Shown piece by piece: positions 1 to 19,465 of a DNA stretch of 32,000 nucleotides. The stretch is from positions 90,001-122,000 of the forward strand of contig NZ_PQWO01000002.1 of assembly GCF_003231495.1 (NCBI RefSeq), in the 5' to 3' direction. Position 1 is the stretch's first letter; each line of letters opens with the position of its first letter. Source of the stretch: Acaryochloris thomasi RCC1774. GTDB lineage: Bacteria > Cyanobacteriota > Cyanobacteriia > Thermosynechococcales > Thermosynechococcaceae. Under the pieces are notes generated by a model. It worked only from the letters and a program-made list of their open reading frames with translations. It had not been told where the DNA came from and searched no databases. The translations under genes were made by a program, and so were the position numbers.

Positions 1-1135
1 GTCCTTCGATGACGGTGCCGCCCTCTAGCTTCAGGGGCTTACGGTTTTTGACCTCTCCGGCGCTGCTGTCGATGTAAACCGTGAGGTTGCCGGTGTTGAA
101 CTGGCCGCCAATGTCTTGGATCAGCGTTAAGAAGTTGCGATCGCTTCCCCCTCTCCGCACCACGATCTGTCCTGACTCCTCAACGACTTGGCTGTTGACC
201 GTATCGCCCACGCCAATGATTGTTGGCATCTGATCGGGATCAAAATTGGTTTTTACTAGGTCTAGTAAGGCGTTGCGATCACTCGGTGCCTGTCGAGCGT
301 TGAAGCCTTCCCCGAGTGGGTATGTTCCTGTGCGGTTAAAGATATAGCGATTGAGCAGCGCCAGCACTCCTGCTTCTTTGATCGCTCCTTGAACCATGAA
401 TTGAAAATCTGTCGTTCCTGAACCCTCTGGACCCGCAAACCAAATGAGCTCTTGCCCCTGCGAATCTTGTCCAAGATTGGGAGCATAGTGAACAAAGAAA
501 GAATCCCCTAAGTCCTTTTCCTGTGCTTCTGCAAGTAGCCGATCAATGAGGGCCTTTATGTTTTTCTGAAGTGCCACGTATACCTCTGGAGCATCTTGGA
601 GATGGGCATAGAACGTATTGAGATTGGCCGTGGGTGACGCTTTGTTATCCAGGACAGAAGCAGCAATACACTCTTCTAGAATGCGTGATTCTAGTATCTC
701 TGGATATTGTTGAAAAAAGTCGTGGAGTTGCCTCGCAATGCGGTCTGGAACGGCTTGGAGAAAGGCGAGCTCTGCCTCACTCACGCCAGGATGTGATACA
801 GCCCCCTCTCGGTCTTGCCACTGGATACCGCCTGCTGCCAGTCCCGGCAGATAATTAGGGACTGAAGAATCTTTGAAGGCTTTCTCAACAATGTGATTAA
901 CGCCCCGCTGACCGATATGCTCACCATTGGTTAAGACGTAGAAGTGCTGATCAAAGGCATTCGTCGCCCGAACGTAGTCAGATGTAATCACCCGCGTGAG
1001 GGGATCTTTAACCAACCCCATACAAACCCCATCTAGATCTTGAATAATCAACAGATTCTCGGTGGTCGCTAACAAAGCTGCGAATGTCTGATGGTCAAGA
1101 CTCAGAGATTGATCATGGAGCGGGGTATCAGGCAT
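1..1135 (-). CDS. stpA: Glucosylglycerol-phosphate phosphatase (StpA type); the 3' end runs off the window start
   Basis: My own minus-strand translation from ATG 1135..1133. The ORF is absent from the track because it is open to the window edge. Sequence: MPDTPLHDQSLSLDHQTFAALLATTENLLIIQDLDGVCMGLVKDPLTR..FYVLTNGEHIGQRGV..LPGLAAGGIQWQDREGAVSHPGV..FFVHYAPNLG..GSGTTDFQFMVQGAIKEAGVLALLNRY..IIGVGDTVNSQV..RRGGSDRNFLTLIQDIG. These blocks match my recollection of Synechocystis StpA (slr0746). The purine tract GAGGAGAGG lies just upstream of the ATG. The gene is divergent from a sugar ABC operon. Confidence 0.8.
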   Translation of the reverse strand, partial: MPDTPLHDQSLSLDHQTFAALLATTENLLIIQDLDGVCMGLVKDPLTRVITSDYVRATNAFDQHFYVLTNGEHIGQRGVNHIVEKAFKDSSVPNYLPGLAAGGIQWQDREGAVSHPGVSEAELAFLQAVPDRIARQLHDFFQQYPEILESRILEECIAASVLDNKASPTANLNTFYAHLQDAPEVYVALQKNIKALIDRLLAEAQEKDLGDSFFVHYAPNLGQDSQGQELIWFAGPEGSGTTDFQFMVQGAIKEAGVLALLNRYIFNRTGTYPLGEGFNARQAPSDRNALLDLVKTNFDPDQMPTIIGVGDTVNSQVVEESGQIVVRRGGSDRNFLTLIQDIGGQFNTGNLTVYIDSSAGEVKNRKPLKLEGGTVIEG

Positions 1136-1618
1136 CGGGAACCTCTCCTCAAAAAGTGGCGGTGGACTTGCTCTCAATAGTCTAAGGGAGTAGGCCGACG
1201 GTCTGGAGACCCATGCTCATATTGATGCTTCAGTGCGTCTCTTAACTGACTGCGCCTGAACGATGCCGAAGTTCCTTCGCCTTCAGTGGTTTGCAGTATC
1301 TAAAATTCCTGAAAAAATCCGATTGTGGTGACGGCTTGTATGTCGGAGACTTGCGATATAGAAACGCAATCTCCATGGATGGAAACGCTCTATGCGTGGC
1401 AGGTCGGGGGGCGACCCTCGCAGCAGCATTAGAGGACAGCGTGTTGCTAAACTAAGTGCCGAAAGGACTTCAAAACTGCCTGAAATGCATTCAACGTCCT
1501 CAATCCCTCATTTTGAGGAACTTTGACCTTCAACACCTCCCTCGGGAGCAGGAGGTCAATCCTATAAATAAGCGCTTTTAGCAACGGCTTATTAAATATC
1601 AATCGTTTCGCTAAGGTA

Positions 1619-2887
1619 ATGATGAAATTTAACTGGTGTGTAAGGATTTTTCTCGGGATAAGCCTGCTGGGTTTAACCGCCTGTGAGTCCACTGACGACC
1701 CCAATAAGAAAACAGTCACGATCTTAGGGGTCGTGGTCGGTGAGCAGCAAGACAAATTAGAAGCAGCCTTGGTGCCCTTTGAAGAGAAGACCGGCATTGA
1801 GGTCGAATATGAAGGCACAGACGCCTTTGCCACTCTTCTGCCCGTGCGTGTTGAAGCCGGTGATGCCCCCGATGTTGCCATGTTTCCGCAGCCCGGTTTG
1901 ATGCAGGACTTTGCCAAGTCTGGCAAGCTGATTCCCGTGACCAACTTTATGGAGCCGTCGGCGCTAGAAGCGGCCTACCCAGAAGACTGGCTGAACTTGG
2001 CAACCGTCGATGACAAGCCCTATGGTGTCTGGTACCGAGCCTCTGTGAAAAGCTTGGTGTGGTACAACCCAGAAGCCTTTGCCGCCAAGGGCTATGAAAT
2101 TCCTAACAACTGGACTGAGCTGATCGCCCTGAGCGACAAGATTGTGGCCGATGGTGAAACCCCCTGGTGTCTCGGCATGGAAAGTGGCGACGCGACCGGC
2201 TGGGTCGGTAGCGACTGGGTTGAAGACATTATGTTGCGTACGGCTGGCCCGGAGACCTACGACCAGTGGGTCAGTCACGACATTCCCTTTGATGCGCCCC
2301 CTGTGAAGGCGGCCTTTGAAAAGTTTGGTGAAATCGTACGCAATCCGAAATATATTTCGGGTGGTGCCGTCAGCGTTATTAGTACGCCCTTTGGCGATTC
2401 TCCGAAGGGGTTATTCAATGACCCACCCCGCTGCTATCTCCATCGGCAGGCTAACTTTGTGTCTAGCTTTTTCGGCGATGACGTCATCCCTGGCGAAAAT
2501 GTGGATGTCTTTCCCTTCCCGGAGATCGATGCCAAAAATGGTTTGCCGATCTTGGTGGCAGGCGACGTGTTTGGGATGTTCAACGATACCCCAGAGGCCC
2601 AGGCGCTGATGGAGTATTTGGCGACCCCTGAACCTCACGTCATTTGGGCTAAGAGCGGTGGCTTTATCTCTCCCCATAAAGAGGTGCCGCTAGAAGCTTA
2701 TCCCGATGATGTGGCGAAGAAGCAGGCTGAGATTTTAGCCAATGCTGAAGCCATTCGGTTTGACGGTTCAGATCTGATGCCGGGGGCCGTCGGGACGGGG
2801 TCTTTCTGGAGTGGGATCGTCGATTATGTCAACGGCGCTCAGGTGGATGCCGTCGTGTCGAAAATTGAGTCGAGTTGGCCAAAGTAA
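1619..2887 (+). CDS. ggtB: CUT1-family sugar ABC transporter substrate-binding lipoprotein, probably the glucosylglycerol/sucrose/trehalose binding protein GgtB
   Basis: 422-aa ORF. The N-terminus MMKFNWCVRIFLGISLLGLTAC has a signal peptide and the lipobox LTAC. The protein is MalE/UgpB-like in length and composition. It is the first gene of an SBP-permease-permease-ATPase operon placed divergently from stpA. Substrate assignment is inferred from context. Confidence 0.7.
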   Translation: MMKFNWCVRIFLGISLLGLTACESTDDPNKKTVTILGVVVGEQQDKLEAALVPFEEKTGIEVEYEGTDAFATLLPVRVEAGDAPDVAMFPQPGLMQDFAKSGKLIPVTNFMEPSALEAAYPEDWLNLATVDDKPYGVWYRASVKSLVWYNPEAFAAKGYEIPNNWTELIALSDKIVADGETPWCLGMESGDATGWVGSDWVEDIMLRTAGPETYDQWVSHDIPFDAPPVKAAFEKFGEIVRNPKYISGGAVSVISTPFGDSPKGLFNDPPRCYLHRQANFVSSFFGDDVIPGENVDVFPFPEIDAKNGLPILVAGDVFGMFNDTPEAQALMEYLATPEPHVIWAKSGGFISPHKEVPLEAYPDDVAKKQAEILANAEAIRFDGSDLMPGAVGTGSFWSGIVDYVNGAQVDAVVSKIESSWPK

Positions 2888-3874
2888 ATGCTAGATGCCG
2901 AAAATCTCAATCGCATTCTAAATGCACTGGTCGCCATTGTGGTTGGTTCCGGTGGCGTGATTGCGCTGTTCTATGCCATGAATGCGCTGGTGGCTGCGCT
3001 GCCCTTCAAGGGGAAGTCGAGGCTGCTGCCCTGGGTTTATATCAGTCCGGCGCTTGTCATTTTGGTAGCTTATCTGGTTCTGCCAACGATCTGGACAGTG
3101 TACATCAGCTTTTTTGATCGCCGCTCAGAAGATTTTGTGGGGCTTGATAACTACATCTTTGCGTTTACCGATGCCTCGATGCTGGTGGCGTTCCGTAATA
3201 ATTTGCTGTGGCTGGTGTTAGTGACCGGCGTGAGCGTGGCCCTGGGGCTGGTGATTGCGGTGCTGGTGGATAAGGTCAAGTATGAAGCCTTTGCCAAGGG
3301 ACTGATCTTCATGCCCATGGCGATCTCCTTTGTTGGGGCTAGCGTCATCTGGCGGTTTGTCTACGCCTATACACCGCCGGAGTTCGAGCAGATTGGGTTA
3401 TTGAATGCGATCTTGGTCCAGGTCGGCTTTGAACCCATTGGCTGGCTGGTGAACAAGTCGGTGAATAACTTTGCCCTGATCGCGATTATGATTTGGCTGC
3501 AGACCGGCTTCTGTATGGTCCTGCTGTCTTCAGCCGTTAAGGGTATTCCTGGCGATGTGCTAGAGGCGGCCCGCATGGACGGGGCCAATGAGCTGCAGAT
3601 CTTCTGGCGGATTACGATTCCGATGATTCGCTCCACGATTACGGTGGTGGCGACGACGGTGGTGGTCTTGGTGTTGAAGGTCTTCGATATTGTGTTTGTG
3701 ATGACGGCAGGGAGGCTGGACACGGATGTGATTGCCAGCCGCATGATTAAAGAGATGTTTAATTCCCGAGATTTTGGCAGAGGAAGTGCGATCGCAGTCA
3801 TTCTTTTAATCGCAGTTATTCCCGTAATGGCGGCCAATATCCGACGGTTTCGTCAGCAGGAGGTGAGTCGATGA
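2888..3874 (+). CDS. ggtC: Sugar ABC transporter permease (MalF/UgpA-like), GgtC-like
   Basis: 328-aa polytopic membrane protein. Its ATG directly abuts the ggtB TAA (2885-2887). It carries an EAA-loop-like segment, EAARMDGANELQIFWRITIPMIRS, typical of CUT1 permeases. Confidence 0.72.
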   Translation: MLDAENLNRILNALVAIVVGSGGVIALFYAMNALVAALPFKGKSRLLPWVYISPALVILVAYLVLPTIWTVYISFFDRRSEDFVGLDNYIFAFTDASMLVAFRNNLLWLVLVTGVSVALGLVIAVLVDKVKYEAFAKGLIFMPMAISFVGASVIWRFVYAYTPPEFEQIGLLNAILVQVGFEPIGWLVNKSVNNFALIAIMIWLQTGFCMVLLSSAVKGIPGDVLEAARMDGANELQIFWRITIPMIRSTITVVATTVVVLVLKVFDIVFVMTAGRLDTDVIASRMIKEMFNSRDFGRGSAIAVILLIAVIPVMAANIRRFRQQEVSR

Positions 3875-4761
3875 CTGCCGCTAAGCCCATTAAAAAGAAG
3901 CGTTTCAGCAAGTTTGAGACTTTCGTGAGCCGTGCCCCCGTGCATATCGCAGTGATCGCGATTGCGCTGATCTGGACGTTGCCGACGATTGGACTGCTGG
4001 TGAGTTCAATTCGCATGCCCGATGTGCTGCTGGAATCAGGCTGGTGGACGGTCTTTCAGCTCCCCTTTGACTTCACGCAGTTCCAGCTCAAGAACTATGC
4101 TGACGTTCTTCAAGGGGAAGATATGGGTCAGGCGTTTCTCAATAGTCTGGCGCTTTCGATTCCGGCGACGGTGATGCCAATTGCGATCGCAACTTTCGCC
4201 GCCTACGCCCTCGCCTGGATGGAATTCCCCGGACGGCAGGTTCTGTTTGCCCTAATCGTTGGCTTACTTGTTGTTCCCCTGCAGATGACGTTGATTCCGA
4301 TTTTGCGGGTCTACAACGAGACCAACCTAGCGGGCACATTCTTGGGCGTCTGGCTCGCTCACACGGGATATGGACTGCCCTTAGGAATCTATCTGCTTCG
4401 TAACTACATTGGGTCGCTACCTCGTGATCTAATTGAGGCCGCTTCAATGGATGGCGCTTCGCACCTGAAGATTTTTACGCGACTGGTGGTGCCGCTTTCG
4501 ACACCTGCGATCGCATCTTTTGCTGTCTTTCAATTCCTGTGGGTGTGGAATGATCTGCTTGTGGCGCTGGTGTACTTAGGAGGCGATCAGAAAGTGGCTC
4601 CAGTGACGTTGATTTTAAGAAATCTAGTAGGCGACCGCGGTCAGGATTGGCATCTGCTCACGGCTGGGGCCTTTATCTCTATGATTGTGCCCTTAATTGT
4701 GTTCTTCTCTCTGCAGCGCTACTTCGTGCGAGGCTTGTTAGCCGGATCGGTAAAAGGATAG
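3871..4761 (+). CDS. ggtD: Sugar ABC transporter permease (MalG/UgpE-like), GgtD-like
   Basis: 296-aa membrane protein. Its start overlaps the ggtC stop (ATGA at 3871-3874), indicating translational coupling. EAA loop: EAASMDGASHLKIFTRLVVPLSTP. Confidence 0.72.
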   Translation: MTAAKPIKKKRFSKFETFVSRAPVHIAVIAIALIWTLPTIGLLVSSIRMPDVLLESGWWTVFQLPFDFTQFQLKNYADVLQGEDMGQAFLNSLALSIPATVMPIAIATFAAYALAWMEFPGRQVLFALIVGLLVVPLQMTLIPILRVYNETNLAGTFLGVWLAHTGYGLPLGIYLLRNYIGSLPRDLIEAASMDGASHLKIFTRLVVPLSTPAIASFAVFQFLWVWNDLLVALVYLGGDQKVAPVTLILRNLVGDRGQDWHLLTAGAFISMIVPLIVFFSLQRYFVRGLLAGSVKG

Positions 4762-4778
4762 AAATTGGAGCGATAAAC

Positions 4779-5873
4779 ATGGCAGGCATTGTTTTTGAGC
4801 AGGTCACCAAGCAGTATGAAAACGGGTTTGAAGCGGTCAAGAACTTCAACCTTGAAATTGGCGAGCAAGAATTTTTGGTCTTAGTCGGACCCTCTGGCTG
4901 CGGCAAAACCACATCACTCCGGATGCTGGCGGGGCTAGAGTCCATTAGCACGGGCAACATCTACATCAATGACAAGCGCGTTAATGATGTGGCCTCGAAA
5001 GATCGAGATATTGCGATGGTGTTTCAGTCCTACGCCCTGTATCCCCACATGACCGTATTTGAAAATATGGCCTTTAGCTTAGATCTGCAGGGCGTTTCTA
5101 AGGCTGAGCAGAAAGAACGGGTTCAGAAAACAGCCACACAGCTCGGGATCGAGGCCCTGCTGGACCGGAAACCCAAGCAGCTCTCGGGGGGACAGCGGCA
5201 GCGAGTAGCGGTGGGACGCGCCATTATCCGTGACCCTGCGGTATTCCTAATGGATGAACCGCTCTCTAACCTAGATGCCAAGCTCAGAGGACAGGCTCGG
5301 ACAGAGCTGAGCGACCTGCAAACAAAACTCGGCACCACCTTTGTCTACGTTACCCACGATCAGGTGGAGGCGATGACGATGGGCACCCGGATTGCCGTGA
5401 TGAATCAGGGCATTTTGCAGCAGGTTGATACGCCCCAAACGCTCTATGAGCGTCCCAATAATATGTTCGTGGCCGGATTTTTAGGCAGCCCGTCCATGAA
5501 CTTTCTCAAGGCAAAGCTTACGGCAGAGCAAGGGCAGCTTTGGGTCGTCAATCAAGCCGTCAAGCTACCGTTGCCGCCGCAATTACAGGCAAAATACCAG
5601 CAATATCAGGGCATGGAGGTTATCTTTGGCCTCCGCCCGGAGCATATTGCGCTGTCTGCCGCTGGCGATTCTGCCACAGATGTTGCGGCTCAGGTTTCTG
5701 CCCTAGAGATGATGGGGCATGAGGCTATGGTTTACTTCACGCTATCCGATGGTCAAAACTGCATTGCTCGCGTTCCTCCTCAACTGCAGCTTGTGCCGGG
5801 AGATAACTTCACAGCCTATTTCGACATGAATTACTGTCATTTATTCGATCTCGATTCGGAGCATGTCCTGTAG
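4779..5873 (+). CDS. ggtA: Sugar ABC transporter ATP-binding protein (MalK/UgpC-like), GgtA-like
   Basis: Walker A GPSGCGKTT, signature LSGGQRQR, Walker B FLMDEPLSNLD and H-loop YVTHDQ, plus a MalK-type C-terminal regulatory domain. I place the start at ATG 4779 (MAGIVFEQVTKQY), 17 nt after the ggtD stop. The track start at 4647 would overlap ggtD by 115 nt. Confidence 0.8.
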   Translation: MAGIVFEQVTKQYENGFEAVKNFNLEIGEQEFLVLVGPSGCGKTTSLRMLAGLESISTGNIYINDKRVNDVASKDRDIAMVFQSYALYPHMTVFENMAFSLDLQGVSKAEQKERVQKTATQLGIEALLDRKPKQLSGGQRQRVAVGRAIIRDPAVFLMDEPLSNLDAKLRGQARTELSDLQTKLGTTFVYVTHDQVEAMTMGTRIAVMNQGILQQVDTPQTLYERPNNMFVAGFLGSPSMNFLKAKLTAEQGQLWVVNQAVKLPLPPQLQAKYQQYQGMEVIFGLRPEHIALSAAGDSATDVAAQVSALEMMGHEAMVYFTLSDGQNCIARVPPQLQLVPGDNFTAYFDMNYCHLFDLDSEHVL

Positions 5874-5920
5874 CCCCTATTCTTTACCCATAACTCCTGC
5901 AATTCCTGTGAAGACCGGGG

Positions 5921-6055
5921 TCTAGCCCCCCTTTTTAAGAGGGTGGGTGGGCGAATCTCCCCTTAACTATCGCTATACAACTGACGATTTTGGAAAGCCC
6001 GTTGCATAGCGATGATCTAAATCCCCCCAGCCCCCCTTGCAAAAGGGGGGAGAAT
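5921..6055. repeat. Two C-tract/G-tract hairpin elements in the convergent intergenic region
   Basis: Positions 5926-5950 read CCCCCCTTTTTAAGAGGGTGGGTGG, an imperfect hairpin. Positions 6031-6050 read CCCCCCTT-GCAA-AAGGGGGG, a perfect 8-bp stem with a GNRA-type tetraloop. Neither element has a flanking U-tract. Confidence 0.4.
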
Positions 6056-6130
6056 ATAAGCTATAAGTAGACTTCAGGGCTTATGGGCGAATGCGAATGC
6101 AGCGCCAGCGGCGATTTGCTTAGCGCTATT

Positions 6131-6328
6131 TTAAGAGCGCTGGCCCCACTTTTTAAGCAGCTCAGCAGCAACCTCCACCATCCTGGGGTCAAAGGTTTCG
6201 ATATAGTCGATCATGGGTTGCGGAACAGATGAATCCTGGAGCTGTTCAAGGACTGTCTCCCCATCACTAGAAGTAAAAAGAGTTTCCAACAGATGGTCCT
6301 GAAAGGCTGCGAGTTCCCTTTCCTGCAT
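6131..6328 (-). CDS. 65-aa acidic helical protein translationally coupled to the MNIO enzyme; candidate minimal MNIO partner or peptide-recognition subunit
   Basis: ATG 6328..6326 lies 4 nt after the MNIO TAG (6335..6333), with GAAGGA 9-14 nt upstream. Sequence: MQERELAAFQDHLLETLFTSSDGETVLEQLQDSSVPQPMIDYIETFDPRMVEVAAELLKKWGQRS. The function is inferred only from position. MbnC, TglI and DUF2063 partners sit directly downstream of MNIO genes in the same way. Confidence 0.55.
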   Translation of the reverse strand: MQERELAAFQDHLLETLFTSSDGETVLEQLQDSSVPQPMIDYIETFDPRMVEVAAELLKKWGQRS

Positions 6329-6332
6329 TGTC

Positions 6333-7211
6333 CTATCCTTCTCTGTCGGCTTGCACAATAGCTTGAATCCGGGCAAAGTCTTGTCGAAATTGGCTTTGTT
6401 CAGAGGCGGGTCCCAGCGTATTGCCTAGACGCTCAAAAATCACGAACTGGACATTAAGGCACTGCTGCAAAGCCAAGGTCAGCAGCTCAAAGACCGCTTC
6501 TGGAACAGGTTGGTCATGGGTGTCGCGTCGAATTTGCCCCCCTGTCCCTTTGCTCCAAGAGCCACCAGAGATATGGATCTCTCGAACCCGATGGAGGGGG
6601 TAGAGTGCCAATAGTTCGGTGGCAGAGATCTGAAAGTTGCAGACTTGGCAGTACAAATTATGGACATCCAGCAGCAGAAAACCATCGACTGACTCTAGGA
6701 GCTTCTCTAGAAAGATACCCTGCTCTCGTACGTCCTGCTGGCTGAAGGCGAACGCTAAATTCTCCAGCCCCACCGGCACTTGTGCCACCTCAGCAAGTCG
6801 CTGTAATCGTTCACGCCCCAACTGTAGAGTCTCAGGGCATAACGGCATGGGTAAGGGGGCACTTTGACGAAAGGTCTCTGTTGCTAGCCAGCCAAAATGT
6901 TCTGAAATATGTTGATAGTGATACTGTCGACGCTCTGCTTCTAAACAGGCTAACCAGTGACTCCGATCGAGTTGGGCCGACAGTAGAGAGTAGCTAACGC
7001 CGTGCCCCAGCAAACGATCTTGCTGACTGAACTGATCTAGCAGAGGCGGCACCCACGTTGGCAGGCCAACCTTACCCCATCCCATATCAAAGCTCCATTC
7101 CAGGACTTCGACAGCACTAGATTCAAGTAGAGGTTGAGCCGTTTGCCAAAAATCGGCCTGAGGCATCAAAGACAGGCCTAGGCTGGGGCGAGTGGTTGTG
7201 GTTGTCGCCAC
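6333..7211 (-). CDS. DUF692 / MNIO (multinuclear non-heme iron oxidase, MbnB/TglH/BufB-like) enzyme
   Basis: TIM-barrel DUF692 signature blocks are seen in order: SLGLSL (beta-1), LGHGVSYS, ISEHFGW, GLENL, LLLDVHNLY, EIHISGG, RRDTHDQPV, VIFERL. The start is ambiguous. GTG 7211 lies 2 nt after the precursor A2 stop with GGGGG upstream. TTG 7238 is the track start and would overlap A2 by 25 nt. ATG 7166 would delete beta-1, so I reject it. Confidence 0.85.
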   Translation of the reverse strand: MATTTTTRPSLGLSLMPQADFWQTAQPLLESSAVEVLEWSFDMGWGKVGLPTWVPPLLDQFSQQDRLLGHGVSYSLLSAQLDRSHWLACLEAERRQYHYQHISEHFGWLATETFRQSAPLPMPLCPETLQLGRERLQRLAEVAQVPVGLENLAFAFSQQDVREQGIFLEKLLESVDGFLLLDVHNLYCQVCNFQISATELLALYPLHRVREIHISGGSWSKGTGGQIRRDTHDQPVPEAVFELLTLALQQCLNVQFVIFERLGNTLGPASEQSQFRQDFARIQAIVQADREG

Positions 7212-7213
7212 GA

Positions 7214-7504
7214 TTACCCCCGACCACAGGGTGGGCAATAGCCGGCCCGATAGCGAGGGTCTTTGGGATTGAGATGTGTTGGGAGGGTCTGAACAGGTGG
7301 CTCGTCCTTGGGCTTTACCTCAATGTTGTTCGACTCAGCTTTGGCCTGTGCTTCCAGGACCTGTGGCTGGGAATCAGATGGCTCAATTTCACCTGAGGGA
7401 ATTGCTTCGAGCGGTTTTTCGTGACGTTTTGGGCTAGCCCGTACGTTCTCTATACCGCTCAGAAGAAACAATAGGCCGAGCAGAAACGGAAGATAAAGCT
7501 TCAT
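7214..7504 (-). CDS. Secreted small protein, candidate MNIO precursor peptide A2 (96 aa) ending in YCPPCGRG
   Basis: From ATG 7504: MKLYLPFLLGLLFLLSGIENVRA|SPKRHE..., a Sec-type signal peptide. This is followed by a Pro/Glu/Gln-rich, Cys-free linker and the C-terminus KDPRYRAGYCPPCGRG*. It is a paralogue of A1 and lies immediately upstream of the MNIO gene. The track start at 7576 would add 24 aa in front of the signal peptide and overlap the A1 stop. Confidence 0.65.
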   Translation of the reverse strand: MKLYLPFLLGLLFLLSGIENVRASPKRHEKPLEAIPSGEIEPSDSQPQVLEAQAKAESNNIEVKPKDEPPVQTLPTHLNPKDPRYRAGYCPPCGRG

Positions 7505-7551
7505 AGAACATAGGGGAGTGAGTGAATGGAATGACTTCAGTCGCCTGACTG

Positions 7552-7872
7552 TTAACCCATGCCGCAGGCGGGACAATTACCGTCGAAGCTGTGGCGAGGA
7601 TCCTCTAGCTGATAGAGGGGAGTTGTCAGTGGGACTTTAGGCTGTTCTACTTGGGGCGTTGGCTGTTCGGCTCTCGTCGATTCGACCTTGGCTGTGATCG
7701 CCTCTATCTCTTCTGAGGTGATTGGCGCTTGCGAGTGGCGTTCGGTGACTTTAGCGGCAGGGGGCTGATGATTTTGAGGTGGCTCACTCAGTCGTGGCTT
7801 GGCCTGTGTGCTCCCGACAAAGCTCAATAGAGGCAACAGGCTTAGCAGGGCGGGCAAAGAAAGTGATTTCAT
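7552..7872 (-). CDS. Secreted small protein, candidate MNIO precursor peptide A1 (106 aa) ending in NCPACGMG
   Basis: MKSLSLPALLSLLPLLSFVGSTQA|KPRL..., a Sec-type signal peptide with an AxA-like site. A Cys-free Pro/Glu/Gln-rich linker follows, then the C-terminus EDPRHSFDGNCPACGMG*. It is the first gene of the minus-strand operon. Confidence 0.65.
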   Translation of the reverse strand: MKSLSLPALLSLLPLLSFVGSTQAKPRLSEPPQNHQPPAAKVTERHSQAPITSEEIEAITAKVESTRAEQPTPQVEQPKVPLTTPLYQLEDPRHSFDGNCPACGMG

Positions 7873-7907
7873 GGGCAGCGTCTCTTCAGGAGGGCTTGAG
7901 TACTTTT

Positions 7908-7913
7908 ATTCTA
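7908..7913 (-). promoter_or_regulatory. Candidate -10 box (TAGAAT on the minus strand) for the precursor/MNIO operon
   Basis: The minus strand reads ...CCCCATAGAATAAAAGTACTC..., with the hexamer 36-41 nt upstream of the A1 ATG. I saw no convincing -35 box. Confidence 0.25.
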
Positions 7914-7973
7914 TGGGGGTGCTTCCATTACTGCTGTTGTGGTTTCACTTTTAGTAACTGCTTTTCTTCTTTG

Positions 7974-7992
7974 CGATCTCTAAAGGAGATCG
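7974..7992. promoter_or_regulatory. Inverted repeat CGATCTC-N5-GAGATCG in the divergent intergenic region (candidate operator)
   Basis: Perfect 7-bp arms with the 5-nt spacer TAAAG. The site lies about 100 nt upstream of the A1 ATG and about 55 nt upstream of the phosphohexomutase ATG. Confidence 0.25.
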
Positions 7993-8047
7993 TTGAGTAG
8001 GAATGCATTAAGGTGAACTGAAGGTAAGCGTCTATCCCCGGCCCACC

Positions 8048-9571
8048 ATGCAAAACTTCAACTGGCATCAGCTTCAAAACGGTTCAGATATTCGTGGGGT
8101 TGCCCTCGATGGCGTGGCGGGCGAAGCTATTAATCTGACTCCCGAAGCGACCACCATGCTCGGGAAAGCCTTTGTGAGCTGGTTGGCTGAGCAGGTGAAT
8201 AAACCGGCTGCTGATTTGGTTATTTCTATTGGTCGAGATAGTCGCCTATCGGGGCCTGACCTAAAGCAGGGACTTATTTCAGGGATTACGGCAATGGGGA
8301 GTCGGGGCTATGATTTTGAACTGGCTTCGACGCCCGCGATGTTCATGAGCACGGTGACGGATGGCTTCAACTGTGATGGAGCGATTATGCTGACGGCGAG
8401 CCACCTCCCTTTTAACCGCAATGGCCTCAAGTTCTTCACGACTCAGGGGGGCTTAGGCAAGCCTGATATTAGCGCGATTCTTGCTTTGGCCGAGGCCGAT
8501 GCGTTTACGACGGCGGCTCAGGCTGGAACCGTTGAGCCACGGGATTTTATGGGTGTTTATGCCCAGCAGCTTGTGCAAACGATTCGCAAGGGCGTTGATC
8601 ATCCTCAGCAGTATGAGCAGCCGCTGCAGGGTCTTAAGATTGTGGTGGATGCAGGGAATGGCGCTGGAGGATTTTTTGCGGAGCACGTCCTGCAGCCGTT
8701 GGGGGCTGATACCACCGGTAGCCAATTTTTAGAGCCAGACGGGACGTTCCCGAATCATATTCCCAACCCTGAAGATGGAGATGCGATCGCATCCCTAAAA
8801 AAAGCCGTCACCACCCACAACGCCGACTTTGGCATCATTTTCGATACTGATGTTGATCGTTCAGGGGCTGTCGATCATACCGGCCAAGAACTCAACCGCA
8901 ACCGGTTAATTGCCCTGATGTCCGCCATCGTCTTGAAAGAGCATCCCGGCTCCAGCATCGTCACCGACTCGATCACCTCCGATGGATTGACCCAATTTAT
9001 CGAGCAACAATTAGGGGGGCAGCATCATCGCTTTAAGCGGGGTTATAAAAACGTAATTAACGAAGCTATCCGACTCAATCAATCAGGCCAAGACGCTTGG
9101 CTAGCCATCGAAACTTCAGGCCACGGAGCTATGAAAGCCAACTACTTCCTTGATGATGGTGCCTACCTGATCAGCCAGCTCCTGATTGAACTTGCCAAAG
9201 CAAAGCAGTCTGGGCAAGCGCTCTCCGATTTAATTTCTACGCTACAGGAACCGACAGAAAGCCAAGAGCTACGCATCGAAATTACTGCGGATGATTTCAA
9301 AGCCTGTGGCAATCAGGTGATCGAAAAACTTCAGGCCTTTGCTGCTCAACAAGCAGACTGGACCTTGGTCCCCAACAACTATGAAGGGGTTCGGATTGCC
9401 TGTACATCGCCTTCAGAAGCAGGCTGGTTCCTCCTGCGTCTCTCGCTTCATGATCCGGTTTTGCCGCTCAATATCGAGTCAAATGTCACGGGTGGGGTGG
9501 CTCAAATTGCTCTACGACTGATGGCCTGCTTGCAAAAGTTTGAATCTCTAGATATCCCACCCATCACTTAA
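8048..9571 (+). CDS. alpha-D-phosphohexomutase family protein (phosphomannomutase/phosphoglucomutase type)
   Basis: 507 aa. N-terminal GSDIRGVA, active-site serine loop TASHLPFNRNG, metal loop FDTDVDRSG, and sugar- and phosphate-binding loops (ETSGHGA, RLSLHDP). Substrate specificity cannot be read from the sequence. Confidence 0.85.
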   Translation: MQNFNWHQLQNGSDIRGVALDGVAGEAINLTPEATTMLGKAFVSWLAEQVNKPAADLVISIGRDSRLSGPDLKQGLISGITAMGSRGYDFELASTPAMFMSTVTDGFNCDGAIMLTASHLPFNRNGLKFFTTQGGLGKPDISAILALAEADAFTTAAQAGTVEPRDFMGVYAQQLVQTIRKGVDHPQQYEQPLQGLKIVVDAGNGAGGFFAEHVLQPLGADTTGSQFLEPDGTFPNHIPNPEDGDAIASLKKAVTTHNADFGIIFDTDVDRSGAVDHTGQELNRNRLIALMSAIVLKEHPGSSIVTDSITSDGLTQFIEQQLGGQHHRFKRGYKNVINEAIRLNQSGQDAWLAIETSGHGAMKANYFLDDGAYLISQLLIELAKAKQSGQALSDLISTLQEPTESQELRIEITADDFKACGNQVIEKLQAFAAQQADWTLVPNNYEGVRIACTSPSEAGWFLLRLSLHDPVLPLNIESNVTGGVAQIALRLMACLQKFESLDIPPIT

Positions 9572-10205: not shown

Positions 10206-11378
10206 ATGATTCAACAAGCACCCACCCAGCAAGAGACCTTTGCCTTCGGTCCTCAAGAGCTTTCCCAAAAGCTCCTGCGGCTGCCCCATACTGAAACATC
10301 TGGCTATTGGAAAATTAGCTTTGACCGATTGGCCCATAAAAATCATCACTGGTATATTGGCCTATCTGCCAATCAAGAGGTCTGTTATACAGGGACACAG
10401 CCTTTCTCCTGTCAGACGCTGCTCAAGATAATCAAGCGCTATTTACCGCAGTCTCGTCGGGAGCCGACGCGGTCTTTTCTTGCGGGGCTGCACAAGACGA
10501 GCAAAGAACAATCATTATCGACTGTAGACACGATTGAAGAGCTGATTCAGATGAATATTCTGGATCTCAAGCAGCTAGCAGACATCCTGCGCTCGAAAAT
10601 TCTCGCTGATTTTGAGCTGTATCTCTCGATTGGGGCTGGAGGGGCTGTCTTTGTCCCTGACGAGTCTCTATCGACACAGATTCCCGTCCCTGGCTTGCCG
10701 ATAGAGACGCTTCTCAAACAGACTCAGCAGCGGCAGGTTCAGTGGCAGCGCGTCAAGCAGATTGTGCCGTCTATGAACGTGATTCCGATTTTAGATACAG
10801 AGCGCCTAGAGCAGTCTGAGCTACCTGAATCCCAGCGTCAGTGGCTAAAAGGCGTTGTTCGTTCGGGCAAAACCCTCAACGACATTAGCGTACTGGTTGC
10901 CAAAGATGTCTTAGAAATTGCCACCGCATTCGCAAAATTTATGCAGGCGGGCGTGATTCGACTGGACTCTGCAACGCAGTCTGAGCCTGGGACGGTGATG
11001 ATTATTGATGATTCACCGATGGTGCTCATGCAGTTTCAGCGCTTGGTTACGGCGTTGGGGCATCCTGTTGTTGTGAATCAAGAAGTTGAGAAATCAATTC
11101 CCATGATTTCTCAGGTTAAGCCTGCCATTATCTTCATCGATATCAATATGCCCGGCATTTCTGGTTTTGAGCTGGTCAAGCAAATTCGGCAGACCCCTGA
11201 GATTGCTTCGATTCCACTGGTTATTTTGACGGGCGAGCAAAAGCTGTCCAACAAGTGGCGTGCCCAGTGGAGTGGCTGTGACTTTCTAACGAAGCCACTG
11301 TCAATGAACGAAATCAATCAGTTTCAGGTTGCTCTACAGGAAAAACTTGAAACGGTGATGTCGACTGCGTCTGTTTAA
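10206..11378 (+). CDS. PatA-type response regulator (N-terminal PATAN-like domain plus C-terminal receiver), PilG/PixG/TaxP class
   Basis: 390 aa. C-terminal REC domain: VMIIDDSPMV...IIFIDINMPGISGFELVKQIR...LVILTGEQ...FLTKP. The roughly 260-aa N-terminal domain is typical of cyanobacterial PatA-like regulators. It is the first gene of the chemotaxis-like operon. Confidence 0.8.
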   Translation: MIQQAPTQQETFAFGPQELSQKLLRLPHTETSGYWKISFDRLAHKNHHWYIGLSANQEVCYTGTQPFSCQTLLKIIKRYLPQSRREPTRSFLAGLHKTSKEQSLSTVDTIEELIQMNILDLKQLADILRSKILADFELYLSIGAGGAVFVPDESLSTQIPVPGLPIETLLKQTQQRQVQWQRVKQIVPSMNVIPILDTERLEQSELPESQRQWLKGVVRSGKTLNDISVLVAKDVLEIATAFAKFMQAGVIRLDSATQSEPGTVMIIDDSPMVLMQFQRLVTALGHPVVVNQEVEKSIPMISQVKPAIIFIDINMPGISGFELVKQIRQTPEIASIPLVILTGEQKLSNKWRAQWSGCDFLTKPLSMNEINQFQVALQEKLETVMSTASV

Positions 11379-11417
11379 GTCTTCCTATCCCTCTACCCCC
11401 CTACCCTGGAGAATATT

Positions 11418-11780
11418 ATGCGATTTCTAATCATTGACGATAGCTCTGTTGATCGTCATTTCTTAGCCAAGCTGTTAGAAACAATTGGTCATGATGTTGA
11501 TCAATGTGATACCCCCAAAGAAGCATTGAGCTTAGTCGAATCGGGTGAGTATGACTTAGTCTTTTTAGACGTTGTGATGCCGGAGCAGGATGGCTACAAG
11601 TTTTTGCGAGAGCTTCGGATGAATCCGACAACGGCAAATCAGTATGTTGTCTTCTGCTCTAGCAAGAAAACGCCCCTAGAAATCAACTACGGTCTCAAGC
11701 GAGCCGGAGCCAATGACTACTTAACGAAGCCGGTCTCCCGCGAAACGGTTGAGCAGGTACTAGAGCGCGTTGCCGCTTAA
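11418..11780 (+). CDS. CheY-like single-domain response regulator (PilH/PixH class)
   Basis: 120 aa: MRFLIIDDSSVDR...LVFLDVVMPEQDGYKFLRELR...VVFCSSK...YLTKP. The acidic pocket, phospho-acceptor Asp and conserved Lys are all present. Confidence 0.9.
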   Translation: MRFLIIDDSSVDRHFLAKLLETIGHDVDQCDTPKEALSLVESGEYDLVFLDVVMPEQDGYKFLRELRMNPTTANQYVVFCSSKKTPLEINYGLKRAGANDYLTKPVSRETVEQVLERVAA

Positions 11781-11791
11781 AGGAGAATTCT

Positions 11792-12256
11792 ATGTCTGCC
11801 GTTGCAGAACGTCCTTCAACAGCGTTGGAACAGCGTTTGGTCTTAGCCCAAGTTGGAGCTTTTACCCTGGCAATTCCCGCATTATGGGTGTCTGAGATTG
11901 CTCGCTTTGAGCCATCTCAGATGCTGGAACTTCCCTTTTACCCGTCCCCGCTCATGGGCCTCATGCACCAAGGCGGACAAGTTGTACCTCTTGTGTCGGC
12001 GGCTCAACTGCTGCAGCAAGAGCGGCAAATGCGTCAAGAGCGACCCACCGTTATTTGCCTAGGAGAAGCGGCTGAGTCACTGAATCAAGTCGGAATTGTT
12101 GTGGATAAGATTCTGGGCAGTACAACCCACTCTGAAGTACCGGCGACGCTCTTCGAGCCGATTGATGTCTCAGCGTTGGGCTCTGAACAGATGGTTCTTC
12201 TGAGCCAGGAATGGTTCTCTTCAGATGTCTGGAAGCCCCAGCAGTGGGCGATTTAA
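11792..12256 (+). CDS. CheW-like coupling protein (PilI/PixI class)
   Basis: 154 aa, with single CheW-domain size and pattern (FTLAIPALWVSEIARF...GLMHQGGQVVPLVS...VGIVVDKILG). It sits between the CheY and MCP genes, 11 nt after the CheY stop. Confidence 0.8.
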   Translation: MSAVAERPSTALEQRLVLAQVGAFTLAIPALWVSEIARFEPSQMLELPFYPSPLMGLMHQGGQVVPLVSAAQLLQQERQMRQERPTVICLGEAAESLNQVGIVVDKILGSTTHSEVPATLFEPIDVSALGSEQMVLLSQEWFSSDVWKPQQWAI

Positions 12257-12364
12257 ATAACTGCAACTGTCCAAACCGTCATTCTAAAATCTTGCCTTTT
12301 TACCTACCTGATCGCTGATTCTGTGATCGGGAAACTCATCTAGCCGTTTTCCCTTTGTTTCGCC

Positions 12365-14278
12365 ATGAATACCCTAGAGTCTCAAGATAACCTCCAGCTT
12401 ACAACTGTTGAGCCGACCACGCCTGTGGGAAAGCTGCGGCAATATGTGCGCTCCCATCTGCTCGGAACGATGGGAGTCACTGTGGCCGGTAGTGTTGTCC
12501 TCACCTTTGTCTCCGTTGGGAATATGGTCCGCACCTATCAAGGATTCCAGTCGACGGTTAATAAGCAGTTTGAACTCCAGAAGCAAGCAGATAAAATCAC
12601 CTATGCTGACGAAGTTCTAACGATGTCGTCTCGGATGGCGGCCAGTACCGGCGATCTGAAGTGGGAAGAGCGCTATAACAATTTTGTGCCGCTGCTAGAT
12701 GATGCGATCGCAAACACCCTAGATAATGTCACCGACGAGATTCGGGCTGAGGCCAGCAAAACCGACGCTGCCAACCAAGCCCTGATTGAAATGGAAACTC
12801 AGGCCTTTGAACTCGTTCGGGCTGGTCGAGCATCTGAAGCTCTTCAGCTTTTGCTGGGACCGGAATACGGTGAGCAGAAAACAATCTATGCCGAAGGGAA
12901 TGCGCGTGTCCTAGCTGACGTAGAGGCTTTTATTGATGCACAGCTAGAGAGCTATCGCCAGGGCTTCCGGGCCTCCATCGGTTTTTCTGTCGGTACGCTG
13001 TCACTGTTAATGATTGCCTGGGTGCTGGTGTTATCTGCCGTTCGAGACTACATTCGAGATCGTATCAGAGCCCAGTCCGCGCTCAAGCAGTCACAGTCTG
13101 AACTCTCCGCCATTAACAACGAACTCCGTCAAGAAGCAGAGGCTCGCCGCCAGCAGGAAGAAAAAATCAGAGCTGAAAGTGAGCAACTGCAAGAGGATAT
13201 CGGTGAACTGCTAGATGTGGTGTGTGACATCGAAGAAGGCGATCTAACCGTTCAAGCCAAAGTGAACGACCGAGCCACCGGGTTGGTTAGCGACACGCTC
13301 AATCGTCTGGTTGAATCGCTAGGCAGTATTCTGCAGCAGGTAGATGCTAACACTCAAGAGGTCTCGCTCAGTGGTCAGCGCCATAAGCGGATTGCGGCAG
13401 TGGTTGCTGAAAGCACCGAGCAACAGACTCAGGCTGTTAATAAAGCCCTTGAACTGACCACGATCGTACAGAAAGCCGCTAACAGCGCTGCAGATCAGCT
13501 CGATACGACGAAGCAATCTCTATTGACGCTCCAGGGAACGGTCGTCAACGGCCAAGCCACAATGCAGCACTTGACCGCAGACATTGATGTTCTTCGGCAG
13601 GGAAGCGATCGCATCGTCCAGCAGATGAAGACTTTGGGTGAATTTGTCGGTCAAACCGATCAGTTTGTGCTTGACCAGAGTGAAATTGCCGCAGAAACGC
13701 AGGTTCTGGCCCTCAATGCTTCCTTGGTGGCGGCCCGAGCGGCTGAACAGCGTGATCCGCAGCAGTTTGCCCGCGTTGCCCGAGATTTTGAATTAATCGC
13801 CAACCAGGTCAGTCAGCTGGCCCAGCAGACGAACGACGGACTGAATACCCTAGAGCAGCGTAGCGCTCAAATTCACCAGGTGGTCTCTGACGTCGATGCC
13901 AACGTTCAAAGTCTAGGTGGGCTTGTGGAAGATTTCAATCGAGGCGTACAGCAAACCGACATTGTCTTCCAGGATGTTCAACAGGTTACTGGACAGGCTG
14001 TAGAAGCAGGTGATGTGGTAGCTCAGACGAGCCAAACAATTGTGGGATCCGCTGAAATTACGGCCCAAAGGATGCAGGCCATTGCCGATTTCTCGGCGCA
14101 AATCGCCCAGCAGTCCCAGCATGCTCGAGAGGTGTCAGACACTATGAACACCTTATCGACCGATCTTCTAGAAAAAGTCCAGGTCTTCAAGTTACCTGCC
14201 CAGGCCGAGACTCCAGCTTCTGAGACTCCAGCTTCTGAGGCTGCCGCAACTGAGCTGCCTATCGCTGTCGAAGTCTAA
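12365..14278 (+). CDS. Methyl-accepting chemotaxis-like protein 1: two TM segments, about 170-aa helical extracytoplasmic domain, HAMP-like region, MCP signalling domain
   Basis: 637 aa. TM1 GVTVAGSVVLTFVSVG. TM2 FSVGTLSLLMIAWVLVLSAV. HAMP-like EEGDLTVQAKVNDRATGLVSDTLNRLVESL. Long heptad-rich MCP domain including QVLALNASLVAARAAE. There is no GAF or PAS sensor domain. Confidence 0.85.
   Translation: MNTLESQDNLQLTTVEPTTPVGKLRQYVRSHLLGTMGVTVAGSVVLTFVSVGNMVRTYQGFQSTVNKQFELQKQADKITYADEVLTMSSRMAASTGDLKWEERYNNFVPLLDDAIANTLDNVTDEIRAEASKTDAANQALIEMETQAFELVRAGRASEALQLLLGPEYGEQKTIYAEGNARVLADVEAFIDAQLESYRQGFRASIGFSVGTLSLLMIAWVLVLSAVRDYIRDRIRAQSALKQSQSELSAINNELRQEAEARRQQEEKIRAESEQLQEDIGELLDVVCDIEEGDLTVQAKVNDRATGLVSDTLNRLVESLGSILQQVDANTQEVSLSGQRHKRIAAVVAESTEQQTQAVNKALELTTIVQKAANSAADQLDTTKQSLLTLQGTVVNGQATMQHLTADIDVLRQGSDRIVQQMKTLGEFVGQTDQFVLDQSEIAAETQVLALNASLVAARAAEQRDPQQFARVARDFELIANQVSQLAQQTNDGLNTLEQRSAQIHQVVSDVDANVQSLGGLVEDFNRGVQQTDIVFQDVQQVTGQAVEAGDVVAQTSQTIVGSAEITAQRMQAIADFSAQIAQQSQHAREVSDTMNTLSTDLLEKVQVFKLPAQAETPASETPASEAAATELPIAVEV
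14207..14236 (+). repeat. Perfect 15-bp tandem duplication (GAGACTCCAGCTTCT x2) inside the MCP-1 C-terminal tail
   Basis: Seen directly in the sequence. It encodes ETPAS-ETPAS. Confidence 0.9.
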
Positions 14279-14321
14279 CCACATCTAGTCCCCCACTCAT
14301 CCATTGTTGAAGGTAATAACC

Positions 14322-16256: not shown

Positions 16257-16315
16257 CGGCCTACCGTAGTTTCTTTCTCCCCTTCAATTGTCTTGTATTG
16301 AGTCACAGTGGCACC

Positions 16316-19300: not shown

Positions 19301-19465
19301 GAAATGCCAATCCTGGTGATTTCTTCTCGGATCTCAGAGGAATGGGGGCGAGAGGCCCAGCGATTAGGAGCCAACGCCTATCTCAATAAAGGGTTTGCCA
19401 CCCCAGAGCTGCTTCAGCAGGTGAACCAACTCTTAGAGGCAAAGCAACCGCAGGCGATCTCCTGA
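16316..19465 (+). CDS. Hybrid CheA-type histidine kinase with C-terminal receiver (Hpt, acidic linker, dimerisation, HATPase, CheW-like, REC); PilL/PixL/TaxAY class
   Basis: Start placed at ATG 16316; the track start at 16298 is a TTG. Hpt motif AVHTVKGGA. N-box LLHLLRNAYDHGLE. G-boxes DDGRGID and GRGVGMDVV. A CheW-like segment follows (CVLLQVGKRTVAIPTEEI...). The C-terminal REC domain reads LLIVDDAALMRRRL...LLITDIEMPNMDGFTL...LVISSR...YLNKG. Confidence 0.9.
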   Translation: MTLEPSSFPSQTSVDAAEAQLQQELCAMFELDTQQHFQAYVEVVQRLDAQSWTADIQHIYRAVHTVKGGAVTVEAEAVLRAATVLEDLLSDLRYLDQAPPLEDGQLVRMLQEAGELLSSTLEVKGTGEDAIASIQPTLDRIQALHAQIKQRYIPDWNELTQVHQEFAEQGFDLVILDLEMAVNQLPVQGQISDAALQIAQQTLAQLTQIGDDLQLAEDWTALVNRSHELAQHPDSAVWKYVWPLYFAALKDCAKHSGHYALEQLADLSVMAANLPAVASLETPAASEAEIELVSSDVDLIADFPDDLTDIDLPDLELSSLDETLFAESDAGLGGTLSDDVFSTAFTDDLGAEDLDLAALEEDEAAIHQLVDADPEDPELTFDSGDVQGLFPTPVAEAGLFPTTLAPANVPAKADAPESSVTAEGADAELRRRIKIPVPLERLDQSAQQVVETLLTTRSTLTVSQSLEFQVSQLAALTQESSQYITRLRQLQDDYALLRSLSHEQDPTNGTSVEQYRQGYTTINRLLENILRMSELSREIEGMSHQAVAGMGQLDRDMLCLKDEIESSRLVPFKNLTLRAKAIVRDLSNRYDKPAQLVIHGEQLELDAGVIQQIEPALLHLLRNAYDHGLESVEERMGKGKPVEGVIQLVLQRRGNLYRLTIQDDGRGIDAAAIHQKAQEKGFPLTETQTSADLLAVLCQPGFSSRNVADDVSGRGVGMDVVAGQIANMGGRLSLNSRPGEGSTFTIEVPAPQLLVPCVLLQVGKRTVAIPTEEIRETVLASSIQVRANAEPDALCPWTVETARGEAPGFGLAAYWQQSQTELSETAVCLRIRQNFDRLSDGSEMWLIADELLGQEALLINPIPSPLVVPAGLLGVSLRSDGRLISVIDPIALIEAIETETQTQPKIQPQQPIVPAAQPEDSTAPTLLIVDDAALMRRRLEGSLRTYGFVIQACVDGLEALQWLQSHPAPALLITDIEMPNMDGFTLVDRCRAQGLEMPILVISSRISEEWGREAQRLGANAYLNKGFATPELLQQVNQLLEAKQPQAIS

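Follow-up and report, generated by a model that had tools for sequence, protein, structure and literature searches.

Four genes lie tightly packed on the minus strand of Acaryochloris thomasi RCC1774 DNA, at 6131..7872 of the window (the whole stretch of 32,000 nucleotides that was analysed), and the gaps between them measure 47, 2 and 4 nt (Table 1). A preliminary description of the same DNA had read them as a compact operon of an MNIO (DUF692) enzyme, two exported peptides and a 65-aa protein, and the open reading frames were confirmed as it gave them. Downstream, the convergent neighbour encodes a MalK-type ABC ATPase of a glucosylglycerol-type transporter, and the divergent neighbour upstream is a PGM/PMM gene, again as described. 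No terminator-like sites were found inside the operon. The divergent intergenic region contains no consensus sigma-70 match, a promoter and terminator scan of 5700..8200 gave nothing exceeding shuffle expectation, and tRNA and Rfam scans of the whole window returned no matches. Examination of the window also bore out that no DUF2063/MbnC, DoxX, TonB receptor, exporter or peptidase gene lies near the operon.

Table 1. Features of the operon and of the adjoining upstream region (positions in the window).
Feature	Position	Strand	Accession or basis
A1, ChrA-type precursor, 106 aa, ATG start, ending NCPACGMG	7552..7872	-	PZD74899.1, 'hypothetical protein'
A1 predicted SPI signal peptide, MKSLSLPALLSLLPLLSFVGSTQA, cleaved before KP	7801..7872	-	heuristic: n/h/c regions, -3/-1 rule
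A1 core motif CPACGMG, C-terminal, predicted modification site	7555..7575	-	same motif as modified by ChrH, DybH and MelH-Hc
A2, paralogous precursor, 96 aa, ATG start, ending YCPPCGRG	7214..7504	-	PZD74911.1, 'hypothetical protein'
A2 predicted SPI signal peptide, MKLYLPFLLGLLFLLSGIENVRA, cleaved before SP	7436..7504	-	heuristic
A2 core motif CPPCGRG, natural CPxCGxG variant	7217..7237	-	sequence
MNIO (DUF692) enzyme, ChrH/DybH/MelH subfamily, TIM barrel only, 292 aa	6333..7211	-	WP_110984643.1
Hc, 65-aa four-helix protein, MelHc-like, separately encoded ChrH C-terminal bundle	6131..6328	-	PZD74951.1
Divergent intergenic region, A1 to PGM/PMM gene; presumed operon promoter	7873..8047	.	by position only

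A1, whose exact sequence is present in NCBI, and A2 are 36% identical over their full length. Their only cysteines are the motif pair (residues 100 and 103 in A1, 90 and 93 in A2), which confirms an earlier observation. Each begins with a hydrophobic h-region, with 12-residue Kyte-Doolittle maxima of 2.4 for A1 and 2.6 for A2 against 0.6-0.7 for the enzyme and Hc, neither of which has a signal peptide. The h-region is followed by a putative cleavage site between TQA and K in A1 and between VRA and S in A2. These putative signal peptides were called by a heuristic and agree with the Sec-type export signals proposed before. No lipobox Cys occurs in either peptide, and a lipoprotein (DAG-RiPP) reading was rejected on that ground; lacking both a lipobox and a third Cys, A1 and A2 should be soluble.

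The enzyme start at GTG 7211, which is the RefSeq start, leaves the 2-nt gap from A2. The reading frame itself extends without a stop as far as TTG 7238 (301 aa), and the GenBank record starts at ATG 7166 (277 aa, PZD74685.1).

The enzyme and Hc belong to the ChrH subfamily

The enzyme matches PF05114 (E 3e-35), and by far its best NCBIfam model is NF050165 MNIO_ChrH, which scores 353 bits over profile positions 1-284 of 363. The other scores are all under their cut-offs: BufB 109 versus 310, HvfB 88 versus 360 and MbnB 12 versus 325. The MNIO_ChrH equivalog cut-off of 600 bits is missed as well, both by the enzyme alone and by the enzyme joined to Hc (361 bits); judged by its sequence, the enzyme is a ChrH-subfamily member and not a ChrH equivalog. 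The metal-ligand blocks GHG, SEH, EN, DxHN, HxSG, DTHD and ER, which the preliminary description had picked out, are invariant or nearly so in 22 homologues (H70, H105, E150, D182, H184, N185, H213, D230 and H232 invariant, E260 nearly), and they align with 3BWW and, where the alignment covers them, with TglH and MbnB. Identity to the experimentally characterised MelH is 50%. Two homologues occur as natural fusions, P0003 with 81% identity to the enzyme and P0004 with 79%; the P0003 model consists of a TIM barrel plus a helical bundle, and its top PDB structural matches are TglH and MbnB. Furthermore, PZD74685.1 and WP_110984643.1, both of which are the window enzyme, were matched by accession number in the ChrH-subfamily list of the PMC12636315 supplement (a van der Donk preprint), in the part of the supplement that Supplementary Table 2 occupies.

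A hallmark of this subfamily is an extra C-terminal helical bundle of ~7.8 kDa, which is either fused or, in Cyanobacteria, a separate polypeptide; this separate C-terminal domain of the ChrH type has been described for Cyanobacteria as MelHc (PMC13056109). In the window the ATG of Hc lies 4 nt past the TAG of the enzyme gene. When Hc was joined to the enzyme, the ChrH profile match grew to positions 1-360 of 363. The C-termini of P0003 and P0004 are 69% and 63% identical to Hc, MelHc is 42% identical (E 1e-14), and AF2 models Hc as a bundle of four helices with a pLDDT of 87. On its own Hc matched nothing in NCBIfam or Pfam, and its identity comes only from the joining to the enzyme, the natural fusions and MelHc. 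These comparisons identify Hc as the C-terminal helical bundle of ChrH, here with a gene to itself.

The precursors point the same way. CPxCGxG, most often as CPACGMG, is the hallmark of ChrA-type (chryseobasin) precursors (PMC10214503, PMC13056109), and the chemistry of ChrH on CPACGMG has been described (PMC10214503). A1 gives a weak C-terminal match to NF050125 ChrA_rel_RiPP (E 0.018) and to NF050124, under both cut-offs (NF050124/NF050125: 15.7 bits versus 40; 13.8 versus 50); these matches cover the C-terminal part only, and the remainder of A1 and A2 is low-complexity. A2 matches neither model. Because the enzyme and A1 fall under their cut-offs and A2 has no ChrA-model match, the locus is a divergent member of the family. 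We consider it highly probable that it is a minimal chryseobasin-type RiPP operon, with two ChrA-like precursors, a ChrH-subfamily MNIO and a separate Hc.

The preliminary description could not place the peptide core in a named family, and had suggested a new MNIO substrate class yielding a periplasmic chelator of copper or another metal, with thiooxazole or oxazolone-thioamide chemistry like that of bufferins or methanobactin. We find such a reading very hard to sustain, although putatively secreted Cys peptides paired with an MNIO do recall bufferins, a free thiol would persist in an unmethylated product, and the function of the chryseobasin-type product class is stated as unknown (PMC13056109), so that the product might bind metal. 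The described ChrH subfamily accommodates the motif, the enzyme and Hc alike, and the enzyme is listed in its published table. Neither A1 nor A2 gives a Pfam or NCBIfam match of the DUF2282, BUF_6/12Cys, EGKCG or MbnA type, the operon lacks a DUF2063 partner and a DoxX gene, and the BufB and MbnB scores lie far under that of ChrH (353 bits, versus 109 for BufB). No metal-homeostasis gene adjoins the operon in the window, the window offers no support for a chelating product, and the flanks of the cyanobacterial relatives vary. The preliminary description had also foreseen that a described family would remove the novelty and leave the function in place. This part stood, with the difference that the family is the chryseobasin-type one and not that of bufferins or methanobactin.

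CPxCGxG precursors in related loci

Synteny was assessed in 80 related genome loci, one of which (L030) is the mel cluster of Melainabacteria SJ512. An Hc-like domain directly follows the enzyme in 76 of them, and 60 carry at least one ORF ending in CxxCGxG on the enzyme strand. These 60 loci hold 72 such ORFs, all but one of them (71/72) on the strand of the enzyme, and 800 shuffled loci yielded 0. ORFs ending in CxxCGxG thus occur beside the enzyme far beyond chance. This result bears out the proposed association of the enzyme with CPxCG peptides and supports A1 and A2 as its substrates. The short precursors of oxygenic cyanobacteria have a conserved Asp-Pro-Arg 6-8 residues ahead of the first Cys and are often paired, one ending in CPACGMG and the other in CPPCGRG. 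Genome context gave no clue to function: the cyanobacterial loci have differing flanks, in which the sole recurring neighbour is a BlaI/BlaR1-like pair, seen in three loci of two genera and absent from the window.

L081, a close relative whose fused enzyme is 81% identical, retains an intact A1 orthologue. Its A2 orthologue survives as a relic that lacks a start codon and has lost its signal peptide, and the motif there reads YYPPCGKG, with Tyr in place of the first Cys. Given this decay, A2-type peptides may be dispensable. A1 could even be the sole true substrate in the window, with A2 a poorly modified or unmodified paralogue heading for loss. We nevertheless judge this unlikely. In the window A2 is intact: it keeps its predicted signal peptide and the two Cys, only 2 nt separate it from the enzyme gene, and CPPCG(R/M/Q)G endings account for 11 of the 72 precursors beside enzyme relatives. 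In L001, L020, L022, L029 and A. marina L082 this is the sole precursor type by the enzyme; in L001 and L020 the adjoining peptides are CPPCGRG-ending A2 orthologues. The x positions are moreover tolerant, as HymA, which ends in CPGCGLG, is modified.

Proposed pathway and comparison with characterised systems

By analogy with the characterised systems, we infer that the enzyme and Hc would form a cytoplasmic heterodimer, that modification would depend on Hc, and that the complex would recognise little beyond the C-terminal CPxCGxG of A1 and probably of A2. This complex would use O2 for a four-electron oxidation in which the second Cys, together with the backbone of the Gly-x after it, is rearranged to give a hydantoin (imidazolidinedione) and a small macrocycle closed by a thioaminal link. 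The expected product is a thiohemiaminal thiol that differs by -4 Da and most probably lacks S-methylation, like those of MelH/Hc and DybH. From the N-terminal sequences of A1 and A2, we infer that the modified peptides would undergo Sec export and cleavage by signal peptidase I (SPI), which cyanobacterial precursors of the chryseobasin-type family use (PMC13056109). The predicted mature forms are soluble Pro/Glu/Gln-rich peptides of ~82 and ~73 aa, with a modified C-terminus, that would reside in the periplasm or outside the cell.

Within the same family, the product could instead be an S-methylated chryseobasin (+10 Da, SAM-dependent), as known from Chryseobacterium ChrH and in part from Archangium ArlH. 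The CPACGMG of A1 is identical to the ChrA motif and ChrH is the top-scoring model; what causes methylation in ChrH and ArlH is not understood, and for a divergent member such as this one sequence does not tell whether the product would carry the methyl group. Still, we hold a methylated product to be quite improbable: the enzyme is well under the ChrH equivalog cut-off, no methyltransferase gene is present in the operon or its flanks, and only -4 Da was seen with MelH/Hc, at 50% identity the closest system to have been characterised, and likewise with DybH, ChsH and HymH.

An unmethylated, Hc-dependent product would be common to the window locus and to the Mel system (MelA1/MelH/MelHc of Candidatus Melainabacteria SJ512), in which MelH modifies its substrate only with MelHc and gives a -4 Da product (PMC13056109). 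Both loci have a CPACGMG-ending precursor, for which an SPI signal is predicted in the window, and a ~292-aa MNIO without C-terminal domain, directly followed by a gene for a separate helical Hc protein of ~65 aa. The host in the one case is a melainabacterium and in the other an oxygenic cyanobacterium, and the second window precursor differs by carrying CPPCGRG. The Mel system is the only cyanobacterial-type one to have been tested, and its substrate is a 34-kDa TPR protein, whereas the predicted substrates in the window are short and of low complexity (106 and 96 aa); we count this difference against our preferred explanation.

Chryseobacterium ChrA/ChrH(/ChrI) (PMC10214503) and the locus have in common the C-terminal CPACGMG, an MNIO with ChrH as best model, a helical C-terminal domain and a precursor of similar length, whose SPI-type secretion is predicted for the window. 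However, Chryseobacterium ChrH is a single polypeptide of ~363 aa and the window enzyme is split, with the domain in a separate gene. Its product is S-methylated (+10 Da), and the chr operon also has genes for an M42 peptidase, an epimerase and the DUF1772 protein ChrI, all absent from the window; ChrI is dispensable (PMC13056109).

The DybA/DybH cluster of Bacteroidota (DAG-RiPPs, PMC13056109) is likewise a minimal pair of precursor and MNIO with a CPxCGxG core. We also count as probably shared, by analogy on the window side, an unmethylated macrocycle-hydantoin, cytoplasmic modification before export and leader-independent recognition. DybA, unlike A1 and A2, contains a third conserved Cys, placed in a lipobox, and becomes a triacylated lipoprotein; DybH is fused to its C-terminal domain. 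Small operons are a feature that the locus has in common with bufferins (BufABC) and oxazolins (HvfABC), whose Cys precursors are Sec-exported after modification by an MNIO, as is predicted for A1 and A2. Bufferins and oxazolins differ in having DUF2282, BUF_6/12Cys or EGKCG-repeat precursors, a DUF2063 partner, thiooxazole or oxazolone-thioamide chemistry and a demonstrated copper-handling role, none of which was found for the window. Bufferin, oxazolin and methanobactin assignments were accordingly rejected on the Pfam/NCBIfam scores and the lack of a DUF2063/MbnC partner.

Standing of the locus within the family

The published ChrH/DybH/MelH family already counts this cyanobacterial locus among its catalogued members, and very little about it is new: earlier publications cover the system type, the split cyanobacterial enzyme, the CPxCGxG signature and secretion through SPI. 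The locus adds nothing on what chryseobasin-type C-termini do. One could speculate that the short, soluble, SPI-secreted precursors of oxygenic cyanobacteria form a functionally distinct chryseobasin branch, in which CPPCGRG would give a new macrocycle congener and the free thiol would have a periplasmic role. We give this idea little credence; if true, the free-thiol role (metal or pyrophosphate/lipid-II-type binding) would provide the product class with a function.

With four genes and two short substrates, in an oxygenic cyanobacterium that can be cultured, the operon would be convenient for knock-out and localisation work. For annotation, the GenBank start of the enzyme should shift to GTG 7211, and names can be given to C1752_00658, 00660 and 00661, now 'hypothetical proteins': the Hc subunit and two precursors of the ChrA type.

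The operon and its DUF692 enzyme

The operon comprises four minus-strand ORFs, all present where the preliminary description had placed them: two predicted precursor peptides (A1 and A2), a DUF692/MNIO enzyme and a 65-aa protein (Hc). Intergenic gaps measure 47, 2 and 4 nt, and the operon contains no terminator-like site. All four encoded proteins are exact matches of C1752_00658 to C1752_00661 of Acaryochloris thomasi RCC1774, the source of the window. The feature is real and its gene-level reading was correct.

GTG 7211 is the most likely start codon of the enzyme: in the alignment, a homologue (P0002, 85% identical) has its N-terminus, MATTTANPP, at this position, a GGGGG stretch is found 5 nt ahead of the codon, and RefSeq WP_110984643.1 uses the same start. 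With the GenBank start at ATG 7166 (277 aa), the conserved P-x-LGLSLMP N-terminal strand is lost.

Coordinates of features in the window and in related loci (L-numbers)
Feature	Position	Strand	Description
A1	7552..7872	-	106 aa, C-terminus NCPACGMG
A2	7214..7504	-	96 aa, C-terminus YCPPCGRG
DUF692 enzyme	end at 6333, likely start GTG 7211	-	292 aa
Hc	6131..6328	-	65-aa ORF, ATG 4 nt past enzyme TAG
Asp-Pro-Arg of A1	7594..7602		6-8 residues ahead of first Cys of CPxCGxG
Asp-Pro-Arg of A2	7253..7261		6-8 residues ahead of first Cys of CPxCGxG
Glucosylglycerol-type module	2..5873		GG-phosphate phosphatase (PF09506), binding protein, two permeases, MalK-like ATPase
Convergent intergenic region	5874..6130		between ABC ATPase gene and Hc
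Terminator-like site	5917..5929	+	within 5874..6130
Chemotaxis-like cluster	10206..19465		PatA-type regulator, CheY, CheW, MCP, hybrid CheA
650-aa ORF	14304..16256		inside chemotaxis-like cluster, no Pfam match
496-aa ORF	23309..24799		beyond chemotaxis-like cluster, no Pfam match
FHA-GAF-GGDEF-EAL protein	29349..32000		long ORF extending past window end
Close relative, L081	4490..6107		metagenomic locus
A2 relic, L081	4810..5004		no start codon or signal peptide
Second TPR protein, L030	5093..6079		328 aa, downstream of MelHc
BlaI/BlaR1-like neighbours	L082 3302..4581; L086 4308..5587; L084 7181..8436		Acaryochloris marina-type loci and a Leptolyngbya genome

Profile searches bore out the expected match to PF05114 (E 3e-35). 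The best NCBIfam model by a wide margin is ChrH, with 353 bits compared to 109 for BufB, 88 for HvfB, 46 for ApyH and 12 for MbnB, the match ending at profile position 284 of 363. The enzyme is also 50% identical to MelH of Melainabacteria SJ512, whose published mel cluster is L030 among our related loci. ChrA precursors are defined by a terminal CPACGMG, which ChrH modifies (PMC10214503), and precursors of the entire ChrH subfamily end in CPxCGxG (PMC13056109). A1 gives weak C-terminal matches to two NCBIfam chryseobasin precursor models. Since the enzyme scores under the ChrH equivalog cut-off, and both A1 and A2 under the ChrA cut-offs, the locus is placed as a divergent member of the subfamily rather than an equivalog of the system in Chryseobacterium. 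Bufferin, oxazolin and methanobactin systems were rejected for this operon; a DAG-RiPP was rejected too, in that case because the precursors lack a lipobox.

The preliminary description had suggested a possible new MNIO substrate class, plausibly with a metal-chelating product. The novelty does not hold: this kind of system, its split-enzyme cyanobacterial form and even the enzyme itself are already in the literature. A metallophore seems unlikely, and neither the window nor the flanks of related loci, which vary, offered anything in its favour.

Hc as a separately encoded C-terminal domain

Throughout the ChrH subfamily, the enzyme has an additional helical bundle of ~7.8 kDa at its C-terminus; in Cyanobacteria this bundle is a separate polypeptide, MelHc, which purifies together with MelH and without which MelA1 is not modified (PMC13056109). 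Hc is this domain. When enzyme and Hc are joined, the ChrH profile match grows from 1-284 to 1-360 of 363, with a gain of 8 bits. Single-chain homologues also occur in nature: P0003 and P0004 (368 aa) share 81% and 79% identity with the enzyme, and their C-terminal domains share 69% and 63% with Hc, which is itself 42% identical to MelHc (E 1e-14). AlphaFold2 models Hc as a four-helix bundle (pLDDT 87) and P0003 as a TIM barrel joined to a helical bundle (pLDDT 88); the top PDB matches of the latter model are TglH, MbnB and 3BWW.

Among 80 related loci, an Hc profile search places the domain directly past the enzyme in 76, as a separate ORF in ~68 and fused in ~8. The split form is thus the majority, also outside Cyanobacteria (Planctomycetota, Verrucomicrobiota, Bdellovibrionota, Omnitrophota and Chlamydiales MAGs), which modestly extends the published picture. 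Some cyanobacterial and Obscuribacterales loci (L040, L048, L044, L055, L066) carry a fusion, which is also found among close relatives of the Acaryochloris enzyme.

Precursors and proposed pathway

A1 and A2 are paralogues (36% identity over their full length), each with two cysteines, all within the C-terminal motif. The association of the enzyme with small Cys-motif ORFs, predicted earlier, was recovered across genomes: 72 ORFs ending in CxxCGxG occur in 60 of the 80 loci, 71 of them on the enzyme strand and most immediately upstream, compared to 0 in 800 shuffled loci. Two-precursor loci are common, and CPPCG(R/M/Q)G recurs often as a natural core among precursors beside enzyme relatives, a further small extension.

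Beyond the operon anatomy, family assignment, Hc identity and synteny established here, a pathway can be proposed by analogy. The MelH/MelHc product is an unmethylated macrocycle-hydantoin (-4 Da), and the precursors of Cyanobacteria and Chryseobacterium use the signal peptidase I (SPI) route for secretion; on the product's role, the only remark is that its ring resembles the lantibiotic B ring (PMC13056109). In the cytoplasm, an enzyme-Hc heterodimer would bind the C-terminal motif without needing the leader peptide and carry out a four-electron oxidation to a macrocycle and hydantoin, the thiol probably staying free. Heuristically, the hydrophobic N-terminal segments followed by TQA|K (A1) or VRA|S (A2) fit SPI processing; Sec export and cleavage would then yield soluble Pro/Glu/Gln-rich peptides of ~82 and ~73 aa.

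The Asp-Pro-Arg ahead of the core, another addition of this study, is kept in precursors of the Acaryochloris/Thermosynechococcaceae clade (L001, L002, L003, L006, L020, L081, L082) but does not extend to more distant precursors; it may serve for recognition or processing.

Related loci and flanking genes

L081 shares the window's PGM and PatA/CheY/CheW flank; there, P0003 combines enzyme and Hc in one chain, and the A1 orthologue is intact. In its A2 relic, Tyr replaces the first Cys (YYPPCGKG). A2 has decayed in this sister lineage, also a small new observation. The second TPR protein of the mel cluster ends in YVACGMG, which includes just the second motif Cys. In L082, L086 and L084, the precursor-MNIO-Hc core has as neighbours a BlaI/Penicillinase_R-family repressor and a BlaR1-like M48 peptidase, a possible sign of linked regulation; the window lacks this pair. 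Genes for a peptidase, exporter, TonB receptor, DUF2063, DoxX or DUF1772 were likewise not found in the window.

Upstream of the operon lies the convergent glucosylglycerol-type module, whose phosphatase ORF extends beyond the window start; this PF09506 phosphatase beside sugar ABC transporter genes backs the earlier 'ggt' label. The convergent intergenic region holds G/C-run hairpins (for example CCCCCC-TTTTGCAA-GGGGGG, minus-strand reading, near 6030..6050), which together with the terminator-like site are probably the terminators of both converging units. On the divergent flank, a PGM/PMM gene precedes the chemotaxis-like cluster. The FHA-GAF-GGDEF-EAL protein at the window end is of a type active in cyclic-di-GMP turnover.
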